DNA of 64,000 bases from Escherichia coli (GTDB taxonomy: Bacteria > Pseudomonadota > Gammaproteobacteria > Enterobacterales > Enterobacteriaceae). A program made the translations under genes and the position numbers. Of the stretch, positions 9,383-43,194 are shown piece by piece. The stretch is taken from NCBI RefSeq assembly GCF_009931435.1, contig NZ_CP043414.1; one strand, 5' to 3'. The notes beneath the pieces were generated by a model, which was not told where the DNA came from, did not search any database, and saw only the letters and a list, made by a program, of their open reading frames with translations. Positions within the stretch are counted from its first letter, which is position 1; each line of letters starts with the position of its first letter.

Positions 9383-9590
<208 letters not shown>

Positions 9591-9661
9591 TGTAAATAAC
9601 GACAAAAATAAAATTGGCCGTTTCGGTCAGGGCCAACTATTGCCTGAAAAAGGGTAACGAC

Positions 9662-16621: not shown

Positions 16622-18016
16622 ATGCCATTTAAAAAAATCTCCCGACGCACCTTCCTGACGGCAAGCTCGGCGCTTGCCTTCCTCCATACCCCTTTCGCCC
16701 GCGCGCTTCCCGCCCGACAAAGCGTTAACATTAACGACTACACCCCTCACGACTGGATCGCCTCATTTAAACAAGCCTTCAGCGAAGGGCAAACGGTCGT
16801 CGTGCCTGCTGGATTCGTTTGTGACAATATCAACACCGGCATCTTCATTCCTCCTGGCAAAACGTTACACATCCTTGGAAGCCTGCGCGGCAACGGCAGA
16901 GGGCGATTTGTCTTACAGGACAGCAGCCAGGTGACAGGGGAGGAGGGTGGCAGTATGCATAACATCACCCTGGATGTGCGTGGCTCTGACTGCACCATCA
17001 AAGGGCTGACGATGAGCGGCTTTGGTCCGGTAACGCAGATTTATATCGGCGGCAAAAACAAACGAGTAATGCGTAACCTCTCCATCGATAACCTGACCGT
17101 TAGCCACGCTAATTACGCCATCTTACGCCAGGGATTTCATAACCAGATTATCGGTGCCAACATCACCAACTGTAAATTTAGTGATTTACAGGGCGACGCC
17201 ATTGAATGGAACGTGGCGATTAACGACCGTGATATTTTGATATCTGACCATGTCATCGAGCGCATCAACTGTACCAACGGCAAAATCAACTGGGGTATCG
17301 GCATAGGCCTTGCGGGAAGTACCTACGATAATAACTACCCGGAAGACCAGGCAGTGAAAAACTTTGTCGTGGCGAATATCACGGGATCGGATTGTCGGCA
17401 GTTGATCCATGTTGAAAATGGTAAACATTTTGTTATTCGTAATATCAAAGCCCGCAATATCACGCCGGATTTCAGCAAGAAAGCAGGCATTGATAACGCG
17501 ACAGTTGCTATTTACGGTTGTGACAATTTCGTGATTGATAATATTGAAATGATTAATAGCGCTGGGATGTTAATCGGCTATGGGGTAATTAAAGGCAAAT
17601 ATCTCTCAATACCGCAAAATTTCCGAGTGAATAATATTCAAATGGATAACACCCATCTTGCTTATAAATTGCGCGGTATCCAAATCTCTGCCGGGAATGC
17701 TGTCTCCTTTGTGGCGCTGACTAACATTGAGATGAAGCGTGCGTCGCTGGAGTTACACAACAAACCGCAACATCTTTTTATGCGAAATATCAAGGTGATG
17801 CAGGAATCCTCAGTTGGACCCGCATTGAGCATGAACTTCGACATGCGCAAAGACGTTCGCGGCGTCTTTATGGCGAAAAAAGAAACACTGCTGTCACTTG
17901 CAAATGTTCATGCGGTGAATGAAAAAGGGCAAAGCTCCGTCGATATCGACAGAGTTAATCACCACATTGTTAATGTGGAAAAGATTAACTTTAGATTGCC
18001 AGAACGGAGGGAGTAG
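16622..18016 (+). CDS. wcaM: colanic acid biosynthesis protein WcaM (secreted, predicted beta-helix)
   Basis: 464-aa ORF; Tat-like signal ([14 protein letters not shown]); last gene of the wca operon. Confidence 0.85.
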
Positions 18017-18173: not shown

Positions 18174-19169
18174 ATGAACGATAACGTTTTGCTCATAGGA
18201 GCTTCCGGATTCGTAGGAACCCGACTACTTGAAACGGCAATTGCTGACTTTAATATCAAGAACCTGGACAAACAGCAGAGCCACTTTTATCCAGAAATCA
18301 CACAGATTGGCGATGTTCGTGATCAACAGGCACTCGACCAGGCGTTAGCCGGTTTTGACACTGTTGTACTACTGGCAGCGGAACACCGCGATGACGTCAG
18401 CCCTACTTCTCTCTATTATGATGTCAACGTTCAGGGTACCCGCAATGTGCTGGCGGCCATGGAAAAAAATGGCGTTAAAAATATCATCTTTACCAGTTCC
18501 GTTGCTGTTTATGGTTTGAACAAACACAACCCTGACGAAAACCATCCACACGATCCTTTCAACCACTACGGCAAAAGTAAGTGGCAGGCAGAGGAAGTGC
18601 TGCGTGAATGGTATAACAAAGCACCAACAGAACGTTCATTAACTATCATCCGTCCTACCGTTATCTTCGGTGAACGCAACCGCGGTAACGTCTATAACTT
18701 GCTGAAACAGATCGCTGGCGGCAAGTTTATGATGGTGGGCGCAGGGACTAACTATAAGTCCATGGCTTATGTTGGAAACATTGTTGAGTTTATCAAGTAC
18801 AAACTGAAGAATGTTGCCGCAGGTTATGAGGTTTATAACTACGTTGATAAGCCAGACCTGAACATGAACCAGTTGGTTGCTGAAGTTGAACAAAGCCTGA
18901 ACAAAAAGATCCCTTCTATGCACTTGCCTTACCCACTAGGAATGCTGGGTGGATATTGCTTTGATATCCTGAGCAAAATTACGGGCAAAAAATACGCTGT
19001 CAGCTCAGTGCGCGTGAAAAAATTCTGCGCAACAACACAGTTTGACGCAACGAAAGTGCATTCTTCAGGTTTTGTGGCACCGTATACGCTGTCGCAAGGT
19101 CTGGATCGAACACTGCAGTATGAATTCGTTCATGCCAAAAAAGACGACATAACGTTTGTTTCTGAGTAA
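18174..19169 (+). CDS. gne: NAD-dependent sugar epimerase, Gne/Gnu-like (UDP-GlcNAc/GalNAc or GlcNAc-PP-Und 4-epimerase family)
   Basis: 331-aa ORF; Rossmann motif LLIGASGFVGTRL; located between wcaM and galF, where Gne/Gnu (Z3206-type) genes occur in some E. coli serogroups. Confidence 0.7.
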   Translation: MNDNVLLIGASGFVGTRLLETAIADFNIKNLDKQQSHFYPEITQIGDVRDQQALDQALAGFDTVVLLAAEHRDDVSPTSLYYDVNVQGTRNVLAAMEKNGVKNIIFTSSVAVYGLNKHNPDENHPHDPFNHYGKSKWQAEEVLREWYNKAPTERSLTIIRPTVIFGERNRGNVYNLLKQIAGGKFMMVGAGTNYKSMAYVGNIVEFIKYKLKNVAAGYEVYNYVDKPDLNMNQLVAEVEQSLNKKIPSMHLPYPLGMLGGYCFDILSKITGKKYAVSSVRVKKFCATTQFDATKVHSSGFVAPYTLSQGLDRTLQYEFVHAKKDDITFVSE

Positions 19170-19411: not shown

Positions 19412-20305
19412 ATGACGAATTTAAAAGCAGTTATACCGGTAGCAGGTCTTGGGATGCATATGTTGCCTGCCACTAAGGCGATTCCCAAAGAGATGCTACC
19501 GATCGTCGACAAGCCAATGATTCAGTACATTGTTGACGAGATTGTGGCTGCAGGGATCAAAGAAATCCTCCTGGTAACTCACGCGTCCAAGAACGCAGTC
19601 GAAAACCACTTCGACACCTCTTATGAATTAGAATCTCTCCTTGAACAGCGCGTGAAGCGTCAACTGCTGGCGGAAGTACAGTCTATCTGTCCGCCGGGCG
19701 TGACCATTATGAACGTGCGTCAGGGCGAACCTTTAGGTTTAGGCCACTCCATTTTGTGTGCACGACCCGCCATTGGTGACAACCCATTTGTCGTGGTATT
19801 GCCGGACGTTGTGATCGACGACGCCAGTGCCGACCCGCTGCGCTACAACCTTGCTGCCATGATTGCACGTTTCAACGAAACGGGCCGCAGCCAGGTGCTG
19901 GCAAAACGTATGCCGGGTGACCTCTCTGAATACTCCGTCATTCAGACTAAAGAGCCGCTGGATCGTGAAGGTAAAGTCAGCCGTATTGTTGAATTCATAG
20001 AAAAGCCGGATCAGCCGCAGACGCTGGACTCAGACATCATGGCCGTTGGTCGATATGTGCTTTCTGCCGATATTTGGCCGGAACTTGAACGCACTCAGCC
20101 TGGTGCATGGGGGCGTATTCAGCTGACTGATGCCATTGCCGAACTGGCGAAAAAACAGTCCGTTGATGCCATGCTGATGACTGGTGACAGCTATGACTGC
20201 GGTAAAAAAATGGGTTATATGCAGGCGTTTGTGAAGTATGGACTGCGCAACCTCAAAGAAGGGGCGAAGTTCCGCAAAGGCATTGAGAAACTGTTAAGCG
20301 AATAA
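19412..20305 (+). CDS. galF: UTP-glucose-1-phosphate uridylyltransferase paralogue GalF
   Basis: 297-aa ORF; N-terminus [30 protein letters not shown] typical of GalF/GalU. Confidence 0.9.
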
Positions 20306-20565
20306 TGAAAATCTGACCGAATGTGACGGTTGGCAAGGAAACTATAACAGCAGTGAAGATTCGTGGCGAAAGTAATTTGTTGCGAATATTCCTGCCGTTA
20401 TTTTGTATAAACAATCAGAATAACAAATAGTTAGCAATAGGCTTTTCGTCAAAGTTTTCCTGGATTTTCCTTGTTTCCAGAACGGATTGGTAAGACAATT
20501 AGCGTTTGAGTTTCGAGGGAGATGCAGCAATGTCTCTCAGTAACAGTACGCAATATCAATGAGTT

Positions 20566-20604
20566 CAGTGCACTGGTAGCTGTTAAGCCAGGGGCGGTAG
20601 CGTG
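20566..20604 (+). promoter_or_regulatory. 39-bp JUMPstart element containing the ops site (RfaH-dependent antitermination signal)
   Basis: cagtgcactggtagctgttaagccaggggcggtagcgtg; ops core ggcggtagcgtg at 20593-20604. Confidence 0.8.
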
Positions 20605-20614
20605 GATTGATGGA

Positions 20615-21436
20615 ATGAAAAATAAGTGCCCACGAATTGCAGTAATAATGTCGGTTTATATTAATGATAAATTTAATGAGTTTAAAGAGGCTTTTGACAG
20701 TATTATTAATCAAACATACTCTAACTTTGTTTTCTTTATTTATGCCGATGGCAAGATAAATCCAGATATTGAAAGTTTTTTGCAAAATTATAATTCGCAA
20801 CATGTGATTTTCATTAGAAGTGAAAAAAATAAGGGATTAGCTTATGCTTTGAATAAATTAATATCAGTGGCGCTAGTTAATAATGAATTTGATTTTATTG
20901 CCAGAATGGATGCTGATGATATAAGTTTAGAAGATAGATTTCAACGACAAATAGATTTTTTTATGGCTAACCCTGAGTTAGATGTTGTTGGTGGGTTGTG
21001 TCAAGAGTTTGGTGGTGAGTCAGCAAGAGAAAAATGCAAGATCTATTTTACAGATGAAGCCATTAAAAACAATGCCTTTAAAAAATGTCCTTTCGTTCAT
21101 CCAACCGTGATGTTTAAATCGTCTGTATTTAATAACGGGATGCGATACCCTGAAAATCAGCCACTGACAGAAGATATGTGCTTATGGCTCGAGTTAATAT
21201 CCGCGAATAAAAAGTTTGCAAATATTGACTCCGTTCTTCTAAAGTACAGAATTAATGAGCAGACGCTAAAAAGAAGAAGAGGTTTGAATAAGGCTGTAAC
21301 CGAATTATCCACAAGATTGTATTACGCCAAGAAACTTAAAATGCTTAGCGTACGGAATTTGTTATATATATTAATCCATTTTGGTGTCAGAGTCCTTCCT
21401 TCAAATATATTTAAACTTGTACATAAGTTAAATTAA
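20615..21436 (+). CDS. O-antigen glycosyltransferase, GT2 family
   Basis: ORF 20522..21436, with the likely start (MKNKCPRIAVIMSVYIND) at 20615 just after ops; DADD motif (ARMDADDISLEDRF); AT-rich. Confidence 0.7.
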   Translation: MKNKCPRIAVIMSVYINDKFNEFKEAFDSIINQTYSNFVFFIYADGKINPDIESFLQNYNSQHVIFIRSEKNKGLAYALNKLISVALVNNEFDFIARMDADDISLEDRFQRQIDFFMANPELDVVGGLCQEFGGESAREKCKIYFTDEAIKNNAFKKCPFVHPTVMFKSSVFNNGMRYPENQPLTEDMCLWLELISANKKFANIDSVLLKYRINEQTLKRRRGLNKAVTELSTRLYYAKKLKMLSVRNLLYILIHFGVRVLPSNIFKLVHKLN

Positions 21437-21437
21437 A

Positions 21438-23204
21438 ATGAATAAAACTGTTTATACATATGATGTATGGGATACTATTTTAAAACGTCATTGTTTACCA
21501 TCATATACGTTAGAGGTTTCGTTGTACTGGCTACTTTTGTATCTTGGAAAACCTGAGAAACATAAGGATGTGTATAAAAAAGTAAAAGCACTGGAGAGTG
21601 ATTTTTTTAATCGAAAAGAAGAATATTTTATTGAAGAGCTTATTGTTGGGATATTAATTGAAAATAATTTAATGAATGGATTTTGCAATAACTCTGTGAC
21701 TGCTGCTTGGGAACAAATATATTATTTCGTAGAGAGAAATTGTACATATAAAAATAAAGAGGTTATAGAGTTAATTGGGAGTGACTATGGGGACAAATTA
21801 TTTATTTCTGATTTTTATACTGACTCCAGTTTCATAAAGAAATTGCTACACCACCACCAAGTATCGGTTTTAGATGGTGTGACGTCAGCTGAGTATGGCG
21901 TCAGTAAGCATATGGGTTCATTGTATGAAAAAATAGAACTATTGAAGCAAAGGAAATGGATCCATACTGGAGATAATGAATTAGCTGATATAAAAATGGC
22001 AAAGCGTGCAGGTGCCCAAGTTAGACTTATAAAATCCAAAAAGAAGAAAATAAATAAGTTAAAAATAAAAAATGACTATGAGCGGTTAGCATTTATTATT
22101 TTGTCCTTTAGCCTGTTTATATTAAAAACTTCCAGAAAGAAAAAGTGCAATAAGATCTACTTTTTTACAAGGGAGGGGGTTTTTTTCAAAAAAAACTTTG
22201 ATCTTCTACTAAACCAAATACCTAACATATTCCCATCTATAACTACGGAAATATTGCCAATCAGTCGAGTAGCCAGCTTAGCATTGAAGTTTAATGAGTC
22301 TGATGAATTTTTAGGATTTAATGATGCATTAACCCAGTATGGCTATGGAGTGTCTACGTTTCTTAGTTTCTTTCATCTTGATGATTGTTACTCCGAGCTC
22401 ACAACAAAGTATCATGATGTAAATGATTTATTATCTCACAGAAATGATCCTTTGGTAAAACAACTAATAAAAAGTATAGAGGATAAAAAAAAACGAACAG
22501 AAAATTTTCTTACATCCATTGAGTTCGATTCTGAGCCAAGTATCATCGTGGATATTGGTTGGCGGGGTAGCATCCAAGATAATTTAATGTCGCGGAAAAA
22601 TAATTATATTCAACATGGATGTTATCTCGGATTGTTTGATTTTTACCCAGGCCAGTCAGGTCAGAATAAATCATCTGTAATTTTTGATAACAACAGATTT
22701 AGACAAAAATGGACCATGAAAGGTGTAGCTTTTATGGAGACGGTTTTCAATGCTTTGGACGGAAGTGTTGTCGATTATGTAAACAATAAACCGAAAAGAA
22801 AAGAAAATTACGCTGAGATAGAAAATTCAAAACATTTAATAGTTATGCAAGATGCTATCATTGAGGAATTTATGAATCTATCTATTATGTTAAAAGAGGG
22901 AAAGTTAAATATCAATGATATTGAAAGATTAGCTATTGAAAGTTACAAAAAAATAGTAACTAACCCATCTAAAGAAATAGCTGATTTTTATGTTGGCAGT
23001 ATCCAAAATGAAAGCTTCGGTTTGAATGATTTTATCGACAAAGAATTTAACATTAGCGCAGTAGATGTTTTCCGAAGTTTTTTTTCTAAAAGTAAAAGAA
23101 ATGAAATAAGAATAAAATTGCATAGAAATGGATGGCGTGAGTCGATACTTAAATCCTCTAAAGTATCGCTGAGCGCAAAATTATGTTCACTTTTAATTAG
23201 ATAA
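21438..23204 (+). CDS. hypothetical 588-aa O-antigen cluster protein; HAD-like N-terminal region plus uncharacterised C-terminal domain
   Basis: Long AT-rich ORF; N-terminus YDVWDTIL and IHTGDNELADIKMAKRAGAQ loosely resemble HAD motifs I and III/IV; hydrophobic segment near residue 215; no family recognised for residues 230-588. Confidence 0.55.
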   Translation: MNKTVYTYDVWDTILKRHCLPSYTLEVSLYWLLLYLGKPEKHKDVYKKVKALESDFFNRKEEYFIEELIVGILIENNLMNGFCNNSVTAAWEQIYYFVERNCTYKNKEVIELIGSDYGDKLFISDFYTDSSFIKKLLHHHQVSVLDGVTSAEYGVSKHMGSLYEKIELLKQRKWIHTGDNELADIKMAKRAGAQVRLIKSKKKKINKLKIKNDYERLAFIILSFSLFILKTSRKKKCNKIYFFTREGVFFKKNFDLLLNQIPNIFPSITTEILPISRVASLALKFNESDEFLGFNDALTQYGYGVSTFLSFFHLDDCYSELTTKYHDVNDLLSHRNDPLVKQLIKSIEDKKKRTENFLTSIEFDSEPSIIVDIGWRGSIQDNLMSRKNNYIQHGCYLGLFDFYPGQSGQNKSSVIFDNNRFRQKWTMKGVAFMETVFNALDGSVVDYVNNKPKRKENYAEIENSKHLIVMQDAIIEEFMNLSIMLKEGKLNINDIERLAIESYKKIVTNPSKEIADFYVGSIQNESFGLNDFIDKEFNISAVDVFRSFFSKSKRNEIRIKLHRNGWRESILKSSKVSLSAKLCSLLIR

Positions 23205-27415: not shown

Positions 27416-27856
27416 ATGAATTTATTGATTGTTTTTTGCTTTTATATTTCGGTTCTGCGTAGTAATAAAATAAGTGTATTTAAATTAATCACTATCACAA
27501 CTGTCTTGATTGTATATGTATTCTGGCTAATAGCCGACAGTTTTACTGGCGTTGGGATAAATGATTCAGTTTATTTCCATATGTTAATGCCGCATGAGGG
27601 GGCATCGGTTGAAAATTTAACATATTATGGATTTCTGATTGTAAGCCTTGTTATTTCAATTTTCTTGATTGCTTATGTTTCTTGGAAAAAGAAGCATAAT
27701 AGAGGATTAAGTAAAAATTACTCTTTTTACGTACTCTTCGCTATTGTATTAGTTACTCCATTTATGCGTAATTTCCTGGGGTCAATTAACAATTTAATTT
27801 CCGAACAGTTTTCTACTGAAGATATAAGTAAAGAGTATGTAATCAATAGTAGGTGA
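27416..27856 (+). pseudogene. 3'-truncated membrane-protein gene, last gene of the O-antigen cluster, interrupted by IS1
   Basis: 146-codon ORF with N-terminal TM helices; its stop codon TGA (27854-27856) lies inside the IS1 left terminal repeat. Confidence 0.6.
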
Positions 27857-27906: not shown

Positions 27907-28182
27907 GTGGCTTCTGTTTCTATCAGCTGTCCCTCCTGTTCAGCTACTGACGGGGTGGTGCGTAACGGCAAAAGCACCGCCGGACATCAGCGCTATCTCT
28001 GCTCTCACTGCCGTAAAACATGGCAACTGCAGTTCACTTACACCGCTTCTCAACCCGGTACGCACCAGAAAATCATTGATATGGCCATGAATGGCGTTGG
28101 ATGCCGGGCAACCGCCCGCATTATGGGCGTTGGCCTCAACACGATTTTCCGCCATTTAAAAAACTCAGGCCGCAGTCGGTAA
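27907..28182 (+). CDS. insA: IS1 InsA
   Basis: 91-aa [26 protein letters not shown]..., zinc-finger/HTH InsA. Confidence 0.9.
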
Positions 28183-28604
28183 CCTCGCGCATACAGCCGG
28201 GCAGTGACGTCATCGTCTGCGCGGAAATGGACGAACAGTGGGGCTATGTCGGGGCTAAATCGCGCCAGCGCTGGCTGTTTTACGCGTATGACAGGCTCCG
28301 GAAGACGGTTGTTGCGCACGTATTCGGTGAACGCACTATGGCGACGCTGGGGCGTCTTATGAGCCTGCTGTCACCCTTTGACGTGGTGATATGGATGACG
28401 GATGGCTGGCCGCTGTATGAATCCCGCCTGAAGGGAAAGCTGCACGTAATCAGCAAGCGATATACGCAGCGAATTGAGCGGCATAACCTGAATCTGAGGC
28501 AGCACCTGGCACGGCTGGGACGGAAGTCGCTGTCGTTCTCAAAATCGGTGGAGCTGCATGACAAAGTCATCGGGCATTATCTGAACATAAAACACTATCA
28601 ATAA
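28101..28604 (+). CDS. insB: IS1 InsB (expressed as InsAB' by -1 frameshift)
   Basis: 167-aa ORF overlapping insA in the -1 frame, ending ...HYLNIKHYQ. Confidence 0.9.
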
Positions 28605-40110: not shown

Positions 40111-40147
40111 AATAAAAAAGCCCCCGGAAGGTGATCTTCCGGGGGCT
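40111..40147 (-). terminator. his attenuator terminator
   Basis: Minus-strand hairpin gcccccggaag-atcac-cttccgggggc followed by a T-run, between hisL and hisG. Confidence 0.85.
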
Positions 40148-40210
40148 TTCTCATGCGTTCATGCACCACTGGAAGATCTGAATGTCTTCCAGCACACATC
40201 GCCTGAAAGA

Positions 40211-40261
40211 CTAGTCAGGATGATGGTGATGATGGTGGTGTTTAAATTGAACGCGTGTCAT
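40211..40261 (-). CDS. hisL: his operon leader peptide
   Basis: Minus-strand ATGACACGCGTTCAATTTAAACACCACCATCATCACCATCATCCTGACTAG encodes MTRVQFKHHHHHHHPD (seven consecutive His codons). Confidence 0.95.
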   Translation of the reverse strand: MTRVQFKHHHHHHHPD

Positions 40262-42928: not shown

Positions 42929-43194
42929 AGAAAAATTATTATGACAAGCCTCTCATTCTCTTGTCATTTCCCCCCCATTTAGGCACAATGCGCCGCTGTC
43001 AAAAAATGACTAAAAACCGACGTTTAATTAGCGTCGGTTATTTTTTGCTTCAAACCAATCATTCATACCAAGAGGCCGGGCTTCGTACCGGATAGATATT
43101 TACTAAAAATCGACAGTTGTTGTCGCTGAGGAATCCAAAAAAATGGGGCAATTTTTTGCTTACGCGACGGTTATCACCGTAAAGGAGAATGACC

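Follow-up and report, generated by a model that had tools for sequence, protein, structure and literature searches.

In operons controlled by RfaH, the ops element acts both as a pause site for RNA polymerase and as the site at which RfaH is loaded (PMC5995543, PMC11001881). The polymerase pauses at ops U11 and a small hairpin in the non-template strand recruits RfaH. Besides excluding NusG, RfaH suppresses both pausing and Rho-dependent termination and also binds ribosomal protein S10 (PMC5995543, PMC11001881, PMC9765446). Genes under RfaH control are devoid of Shine-Dalgarno (SD) elements, and reporters that lack an SD are activated by RfaH (PMC7819879, PMC3905879); it has been proposed that the ribosome is captured at ops and then scans (PMC11001881, PMC7819879). 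Ops-like sites located within translated regions do not load RfaH (PMC9765446). For the distance that separates ops from the start codon, values of 40-67 nt (wzx, kps and rfa) and ~600 nt (hly) have been published (PMC9765446), and elsewhere the distance is given as 'only 50+ nts' (PMC11001881).

Here, we examined an O-antigen locus in which this distance is 10 nt. The window, i.e. the whole stretch of 64,000 nt that was analysed, is a piece of Escherichia coli chromosome in which colanic-acid genes are followed by a gne/gnu-type epimerase gene, galF, an AT-rich O-antigen cluster, and then gnd, ugd, wzz and the his operon. Positions 20306-21436 were found by BLAST at 100% identity in no fewer than 25 complete E. 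coli genomes, SMS-3-5 and TW11681 among them, and the serotype of SMS-3-5 is given as O19:H34 (PMC4237132). Judged by its sequence, the locus is of the type carried by this O19:H34 strain, and its JUMPstart/ops leader is a standard one for a galF-gnd O-antigen operon. We consider it highly probable that four elements jointly explain the region, namely an ordinary RfaH leader, a true start codon at 20615, an over-extended RefSeq gene model, and a JUMPstart-gene junction inherited with the gene-cluster family. The features concerned are the following:

end at 18016: wcaM, of the colanic-acid genes
18174-19169: gne/gnu-type epimerase gene
19412..20305, + strand: galF, conserved left neighbour of the O-antigen locus (ORF list and annotation of the matching SMS-3-5 locus)
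20471..20499, + strand: putative promoter-like block, TTGTTT (20471-20476), 17-nt spacer, GACAAT (20494-20499)
20522..20524, + strand: upstream in-frame ATG, start of the 304-aa RefSeq/PGAP model, judged spurious
20566..20604, + strand: JUMPstart, 39 bp, CAGTGCACTGGTAGCTGTTAAGCCAGGGGCGGTAGCGTG (full-length match to Rfam RF01707; invariant in serogroup alignment A2)
20573..20591, + strand: JUMPstart stem-loop, CUGGU / 9-nt loop / GCCAG (structure line of the Rfam alignment)
20593..20604, + strand (non-template strand, same strand as the operon): ops 12-mer GGCGGTAGCGTG, exact match
20605..20614, + strand: 10-nt spacer GATTGATGGA from ops to ATG, at the end of DNA similarity to other serogroups
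20615-20617, + strand: ATG, predicted true start codon (homologues, profiles, upstream stops)
20615..21436, + strand: first O-antigen gene, predicted family 2 glycosyltransferase (GT2), 273 aa plus stop (Pfam, NCBIfam, homologue alignment A1, upstream stops in orthologues)
20615 to ~27400: AT-rich O-antigen cluster
20648..20650, + strand: internal Met codon, M43 of the long form and M12 of the 273-aa protein, not a start
21438..23204, + strand: second operon gene, 588 aa (ORF list), starting 2 nt past the stop of the first gene

A sequence-only reading of this DNA had proposed a JUMPstart/ops element at 20566-20604, and the element proved genuine. Rfam RF01707 matches it over model positions 1-38 of 38 at these very coordinates, with 62.4 bits against a gathering score of 35 (E-value of 8.5e-14 in a 1-kb search and 5.5e-12 over the whole window), and it is among just seven gathering-level Rfam matches in the whole window. 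The Bacteroides-1 and MIR8001 matches that also appeared in the 1-kb search lie far under their gathering scores and were discarded as chance. The ops core GGCGGTAGnnTG is present on the sense strand at the 3' end of JUMPstart, and the complete 12-mer at 20593-20604 is the sole match with at most one mismatch in 64 kb. By itself, the 12-mer is not significant, 27 of 100 shuffles having at least one such match, and the significance of the element comes from the 39-bp match rather than from the 12-mer alone. Upstream of ops, the 5-bp stem of the stem-loop is paired in the model alignment and its sequence is almost invariant among the compared loci. The placement of JUMPstart between galF and the first O-antigen gene fits the leader of a polysaccharide operon, with the conserved block upstream as a putative promoter.

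The first gene is predicted to encode a GT2 glycosyltransferase. Pfam PF00535 scores 63.5 bits (cut-off of 23.3), with a domain that begins at residue 41 of the 304-aa form, equivalent to residue 10 of the 273-aa form. Three aspartates of a DxD-type GT-A motif (D130, D132 and D133, within RMDADD) are invariant in all 23 sequences of alignment A1, and the AlphaFold2 (AF2) model displays a GT-A-like alternation of strands and helices with a mean pLDDT of 88. The order of the GT2 gene and the second gene is kept in the related loci whose downstream DNA was read (L002, L004, L137, L138 and L139), and in Pectobacterium (L140) a 592-aa gene lies ~640 nt downstream of the GT2 gene.

The start of this gene, which the sequence-only reading had flagged as uncertain, differs between databases: the original SMS-3-5 GenBank record ACB15925.1 holds the 273-aa form and RefSeq the 304-aa form WP_001183563.1, both being present in the public collection. 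The ORF from 20522 to 21436 is in frame with the ATGs at 20615 and 20648 and passes through JUMPstart as ...FSALVAVKPGAVAW... Five independent lines of evidence place the start at the ATG of 20615, which predicts a 273-aa protein. In a search of 5.8 billion proteins, the 304-aa length was limited to the E. coli sequence itself and one variant of 88% identity. The nearest homologues (P0003, P0004 and P0005, with 72, 67 and 68% identity) are 273 aa long, exactly the length obtained from 20615, and one of these three belongs to Salmonella enterica subsp. salamae serovar 52:z:z39; beyond these, over 100 more distant homologues span 254-295 aa, mostly 268-282 aa, and cover 78-90% of the 304-aa query. 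The homologue alignment for which the sequence-only reading had called (A1) puts the N-terminus at the Met of 20615 and at neither 20522 nor 20648: the three 273-aa relatives open with MK... at this Met, and most distant homologues open there or at most 4 residues later, a few having slightly longer N-termini. The nucleotide sequences of orthologues are equally informative. In an enteric metagenome contig (L002), an in-frame TGA stands at position -3, directly before the homologous ATG, and an N-terminal extension is therefore impossible there. Two loci without JUMPstart, one located after a dcuC-like gene (L139) and the Pectobacterium locus located after wzc (L140), start at the homologous Met and carry in-frame stops 27 and 12 nt upstream, respectively. 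In addition, three NCBIfam profiles (EpsE, TuaG and PRK10073) have their first match within residues 1-6 of the 273-aa form. The start proposed by the sequence-only reading is thereby borne out by homologue alignment, upstream stops and profiles, which agree.

Two other in-frame codons have to be weighed against 20615. If the RefSeq model were correct, the protein would start at 20522 and the JUMPstart/ops element would lie within coding sequence, a reading that we regard as very improbable even though it corresponds to the longest ORF, was picked by PGAP in all complete genomes inspected and uses a frame that the 88%-identity variant retains open. The extension is seen in no homologue outside the E. 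coli lineage, the orthologue on the metagenome contig carries the TGA described above, and ATG 20522 is itself missing in other E. coli serogroups and in Salmonella, although the intergenic region is common to them (alignment A2). A GAGGGAG motif stands before ATG 20522, but it abuts the codon with a spacing of 0 nt, too close to count in favour. The GC content of the extension (0.48, against 0.32 in the gene) is that of intergenic DNA, and in the AF2 model of the 304-aa form the pLDDT is below 50 at precisely residues 1-31 and above 90 in the rest; this low confidence is partly due to the extension being present in just 2 of the 23 aligned sequences. PGAP likewise over-extends through JUMPstart at an unrelated wzx gene (strain SC476). 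Translation from 20522 would moreover make ops part of a translated region, and at such sites RfaH does not load (PMC9765446), a functional and hence indirect argument. Should the transcript start near 20506, as estimated below, ATG 20522 would be on the mRNA with its adjacent GAGGGAG, and rare initiation there would be possible. The internal ATG at 20648, which would give a protein of 262 aa, is a still poorer candidate, to which we attach almost no probability. Its gap of 43 nt falls inside the commonly quoted 40-67 nt (PMC9765446), but the invariant M43 that it encodes is internal to the first β-strand, IAVIMSVY (consensus (I/V)A(V/I)(I/L)MS(V/I)Y), the predicted strand covering residues 39-45 in the AF2 model. 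Upstream of M43, A40 is invariant and I42 nearly invariant in alignment A1, the matches to the family profiles start within residues 1-10 of the 273-aa form, likewise upstream of 20648, and this ATG has no SD (duplex energy of -0.7 kcal/mol).

With the start at 20615, the RefSeq model would begin 93 bases too early and read through ops, and its 31 N-terminal residues would be a translation of the leader and JUMPstart. We attribute this over-extension to the combination of one JUMPstart reading frame that is open (SALVAVKPGAVA) and an in-frame ATG upstream of JUMPstart. Any first gene that abuts ops in the open JUMPstart frame can be over-extended in this manner during annotation, and WP_001183563.1 is found on at least 1000 contigs. 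A simple rule, that no CDS should start upstream of a JUMPstart, would correct such cases. The main practical value of the present analysis thus resides in the corrected start codon, 20615-20617, and in the description of a systematic annotation pitfall.

To place the 10-nt gap among other leaders, two surveys of ops-to-start distances were carried out, both of which are samples. For the cross-species sample, species-representative genomes were scanned for GCCAGGGGCGGTAGCRTG, which gave at least 120 loci, and the distance was counted between the last base of ops and the earliest start codon in the first ORF that reached 120 aa; as it follows ORF logic with uncurated starts, this distance is a lower bound. 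Among the matches listed, about 100 cross-species JUMPstart loci show at least 20 nt. In this same list, RmlB-type genes lie at 72-114 nt, except for one locus at 264 nt, Wza-type genes mostly at 170-187 or 403-429 nt, with one further locus each at 296 and 406 nt, and WbaP/AmsG-like genes at 224-226 nt; for genes identified by Pfam, the listed distances are 20-33 nt for ClpB-like AAA+ ATPases (probably type VI secretion tssH/clpV), 27-34 nt for ABC-2 transporters and 33-40 nt for WecA-like glycosyltransferases. In the strict subset (n=42), made up of the listed matches whose JUMPstart 5' half resembles that of E. coli, the minimum is 22 nt and the median 82 nt; this filter drops many probably genuine elements, for instance of the wza type, and both the strict subset and the full list are hence given. 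Four loci with an apparent gap of at most 15 nt were rejected: the 5' half of JUMPstart is missing from each of them, their ORFs all continue upstream past the start taken, and one has a better ATG at 27 nt.

The second survey used the annotated starts of 21 other E. coli RefSeq loci, which range from 13 to 365 nt (13, 37, 51, 59, 60, 74 (five loci), 81, 90, 99, 108, 126, 224, 343 (two loci) and 365 nt (two loci)). Across the surveyed loci, the 10-nt gap is the shortest found, every comparison locus without this gene having at least 13 nt. The sequence-only reading had described the leader as unusually compact, and this holds for its post-ops part, whereas the pre-ops part appears to have the same length as in other serogroups. 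Even the short post-ops part is not unique, in view of the 13 nt in another E. coli cluster and the 20-40 nt in other operon types. The layout is extreme but recurrent, and the element is of an ordinary, already well-described kind.

The same gap is kept in all the JUMPstart-bearing related lineages, namely the window, the 88% variant (L137/L138), the metagenome contig (L002) and the Salmonella locus (L004). The spacer is GATTGATGGA in the window and in L137/L138, GATTAATTGA in L002 and GATGAAAAGA in L004, so that 4 of 10 spacer bases differ among the four lineages; all four share TGGAT where ops meets the spacer. From these sequences, the JUMPstart-10 nt-ATG junction appears to have been inherited, in E. 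coli, in Salmonella and in another enteric bacterium, along with the gene-cluster family, and its association with the GT2 gene would predate the spread of the cluster among these enteric bacteria. We do not take the conserved length as a sign of selection, because common descent suffices to explain it and a stretch of 10 nt rarely gains or loses bases.

JUMPstart also marks the edge of variable DNA. At the DNA level, other E. coli serogroups resemble the window no further than 20603-20612, every serogroup in alignment A2 diverging directly after ops, and the GC content drops at the end of ops from ~0.40 to 0.26-0.30. On the metagenome contig, the DNA upstream of JUMPstart is unrelated to that of E. 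coli, and it is near the element that the contig starts to resemble the window. On this sequence evidence, JUMPstart is the hinge: conservation within E. coli ends with it, and the sequence common to the metagenome contig and the window starts with it. Such a pattern fits JUMPstart as the left-hand boundary of an exchangeable O-antigen module.

Upstream of JUMPstart, the block CTTGTTTCC...GGTAAGACAATTAGCGTTTGA shows almost no variation among E. coli serogroups or in Salmonella (alignment A2). A promoter scan of 20200-20800 returned 2 promoter-like matches, against 1.9 expected, neither being near this conserved block, which itself falls under the thresholds of the consensus scan; no terminators were found in a scan of the same interval. 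Taken as the promoter, the conserved block predicts a transcript start near 20506, ~60 nt upstream of JUMPstart, which is the most likely position, and the leader would then measure ~109 nt, with 10 nt of it after ops. Marolda and Valvano reportedly described, in 1998, a leader of 173 nt for O7, a value on which our estimate of the start also rests. Between 20505 and 20660, the predicted leader fold is no more stable than that of shuffled sequence (z = +1.39), which supports no special structure that would hide or expose the start, and the start region is unpaired in the centroid structure. An out-of-frame mini-ORF, ATGGAATGA at 20610-20618, is conserved in neither L002 nor L004 and was set aside as a chance occurrence.

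A search for anti-SD pairing upstream of 20615 found no SD at a working distance. The best pairing is that of the ops G-run (-8 kcal/mol), 15 nt from the AUG, and at normal SD distance only a GGA is present, at -11 to -9, with 3 base pairs. The lack of a canonical SD in the first gene matches a described criterion of RfaH operons (PMC7819879). By analogy with the described systems, RNA polymerase would pause at 20593-20604, RfaH would load there and it would carry the polymerase through the AT-rich operon. Since the AUG is found 12 nt past the position of the pause, the region covered by the 30S subunit (~-20 to +15) would include the ops RNA. Given the unstructured region and the lack of an SD at a working distance, we propose that initiation probably proceeds via the open, A-rich start (AUG AAA AAU AAG) and an RfaH-tethered ribosome.

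The 10-nt spacing could be functional and maintained by selection, the RfaH-captured ribosome being given the start codon without scanning and the ops RNA serving as a substitute ribosome-binding site, for which the candidates would be the GGGGCGG of ops RNA or the conserved UGGAU at the junction. The constancy of the length in four lineages despite the substitutions in the spacer and the conserved TGGAT, the pairing of the ops G-run with the anti-SD at -8 kcal/mol, the existence of a second E. coli cluster at 13 nt and the published proposal of ribosome capture at ops followed by scanning (PMC11001881, PMC7819879) are all in keeping with such a role. Length conservation over 10 nt is nonetheless expected from common descent, the G-run is past the usual SD spacing and the GGA offers 3 base pairs, and most RfaH operons function with 40 to several hundred nt; we therefore hold selection on the spacing to be decidedly unlikely. 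It is slightly more probable, though still unlikely, that the near-abutment (10 nt here and 13 nt in another E. coli cluster) is a functional layout in which the AUG would be handed over directly via RfaH and S10 at the ops pause, with ops RNA/UGGAU replacing the SD. Were this true, the locus would define the minimal natural ops-to-AUG distance and the proposed scanning step would be dispensable. Current descriptions of RfaH combine a start '50+' or 40-67 nt past ops with ribosome scanning (PMC11001881, PMC9765446), and natural SD-less leaders of 10-13 nt are ready test cases for where and how the first ribosome loads. The reading that we retain is that of an ordinary RfaH leader whose junction was inherited with the gene cluster.

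The locus can be compared with several known systems. The RfaH regulon leaders of strain CFT073 (wzx, kps, rfa and hly; Hustmyer et al. 2022, PMC9765446) have, as here, a single ops on the non-template strand, located in the 5' leader ahead of a long AT-rich envelope operon, but they differ by a distance of 40-67 nt (~600 nt for hly) against 10 nt here, where the ribosome-binding region overlaps the ops RNA. The E. coli O-antigen clusters whose first gene is rfbB/rmlB (O7, O103, B strain and others) share the same 39-bp element and the same promoter-like block, with JUMPstart ~260 nt from the galF stop and a similarity that ends right after ops; they differ in the sequence between the promoter-like block and JUMPstart and in the GTG start of rfbB, 74-81 nt past ops instead of 10 nt.

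Gaps shorter than these occur elsewhere. In the wzx-first O-antigen cluster of E. coli SC476 (L141), ops stands 13 nt before the ATG and PGAP also over-extends the gene through the same open frame SALVAVKPGAVA. This cluster differs by its unrelated first gene, a Wzx flippase, by its spacer, TCGAATTATTAAT, and by the GTG start chosen by PGAP; the Pfam Polysacc_synt domain of its wzx begins at residue 2 of the ATG-initiated form. The ops leaders of ClpB-like AAA+ ATPase and ABC-2 transporter genes also have short gaps (20-34 nt), but belong to another kind of operon, and some display a clear SD (e.g. GAGGGAA in CCTGAACAAGAGGGAACGACATG).

Also close are the orthologous clusters of Salmonella enterica subsp. 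salamae serovar 52:z:z39 (L004, Salmonella O52) and of the enteric metagenome contig (L002), which share with the window the JUMPstart-10 nt-ATG junction and the gene order, i.e. a GT2 gene, a gene for a ~590-aa protein and a second GT2-type glycosyltransferase gene. L002 differs from the window by its galF-JUMPstart intergenic region, by the stop codon at -3 and by its spacer. Besides its own spacer, L004 carries an extra in-frame ATG located 1 nt after ops, an alternative codon 9 nt upstream of the homologous start.

The second gene of the O-antigen operon follows the GT2 gene and is annotated in RefSeq as follows:

21438-23204, + strand, gene for a 588-aa product named 'hypothetical'

Searches of its product against Pfam and NCBIfam returned no matches, and residues 7-534 matched PDB entry 7shg, a 'Ribofuranosyl transferase', with an E-value of 4.3e-14. 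The GT2 gene leads directly into the gene for the 588-aa protein in the related loci whose downstream DNA was read, namely the enteric metagenome contig (L002), Salmonella enterica subsp. salamae serovar 52:z:z39 (L004), the 88%-identity variant (L137 and L138) and a homologue lacking JUMPstart (L139). Together with this position adjoining the GT2 gene, the 7shg match suggests a ribofuranose-type sugar in the O-unit encoded by the cluster.

Two further ORFs were considered:

27416-27856, + strand, 146-aa ORF with a partial match to OpgB/MdoB-like phosphoglycerol transferases
28101-28604, + strand, the ORF after it, lying in the region of an annotated IS1A transposase in E. coli SMS-3-5

Because the NCBIfam likeness of the former covers only the N-terminal ~150 residues of the phosphoglycerol transferase (E-value of 1.5e-11), it looks, from sequence, like a truncated OpgB/MdoB-like gene. 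The IS1A transposase of SMS-3-5 is annotated between wzx and gnd, the region to which the second ORF corresponds, and wzx of that strain is marked incomplete by RefSeq.

Elsewhere in the window, four Rfam matches scored above the gathering score, the first two inside the colanic-acid gene region:

9451-9521, - strand, naRNA4
9608-9657, + strand, algC RNA motif
40112-40235, - strand, histidine operon leader
42974-43048, + strand, sRNA STnc240

Far downstream of the his operon, two further Rfam matches at gathering level and an ORF were found:

52182-52298, + strand, ALIL pseudoknot (117.8 bits), a frameshift signal of IS3-family insertion sequences
53298-54821, 507-aa ORF ending just upstream of the next feature
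54825-54911, + strand, group II intron catalytic domain (64.9 bits)

Taken together, the pseudoknot, the intron match and its adjoining ORF point to a mobile-element patch.

Between the conserved promoter-like block and JUMPstart (20514-20565, + strand), the leader sequence is unlike the version common to most other E. coli serogroups, and this divergence is found in the cluster type of the window and its 88% variant; on sequence comparison, type-specificity thus extends to the leader's upstream portion as well.

Observations were also made at three other E. coli loci:

L131 1493-1615, - strand, 40-aa 'hypothetical protein' in RefSeq, antisense to JUMPstart (ST540)
L132 1527-1538 onward, perfect JUMPstart/ops after galF (SCU-482, NZ_CP053247.1)
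L141 1578-2876, wzx, first gene of the O-antigen cluster (SC476, NZ_LR778151.1)

The antisense ORF, to which rows H114-H118, H120, H124 and H128 are similar, is annotated where a genome's locus begins with wzi (the group 1 capsule type), and probably represents one more false ORF prediction across JUMPstart. For at least 850 nt past JUMPstart/ops, SCU-482 shows neither annotated genes nor ORFs of at least 80 aa; its O-antigen locus may be degraded or rearranged. PGAP starts the SC476 wzx CDS at an upstream GTG, so that the annotated frame runs across JUMPstart; the Pfam domain of Wzx begins at residue 27 when counted from PGAP's start, but at residue 2 when counted from the ATG. With wzx starting 13 nt past ops, SC476 provides a second E. 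coli O-antigen cluster of such layout.
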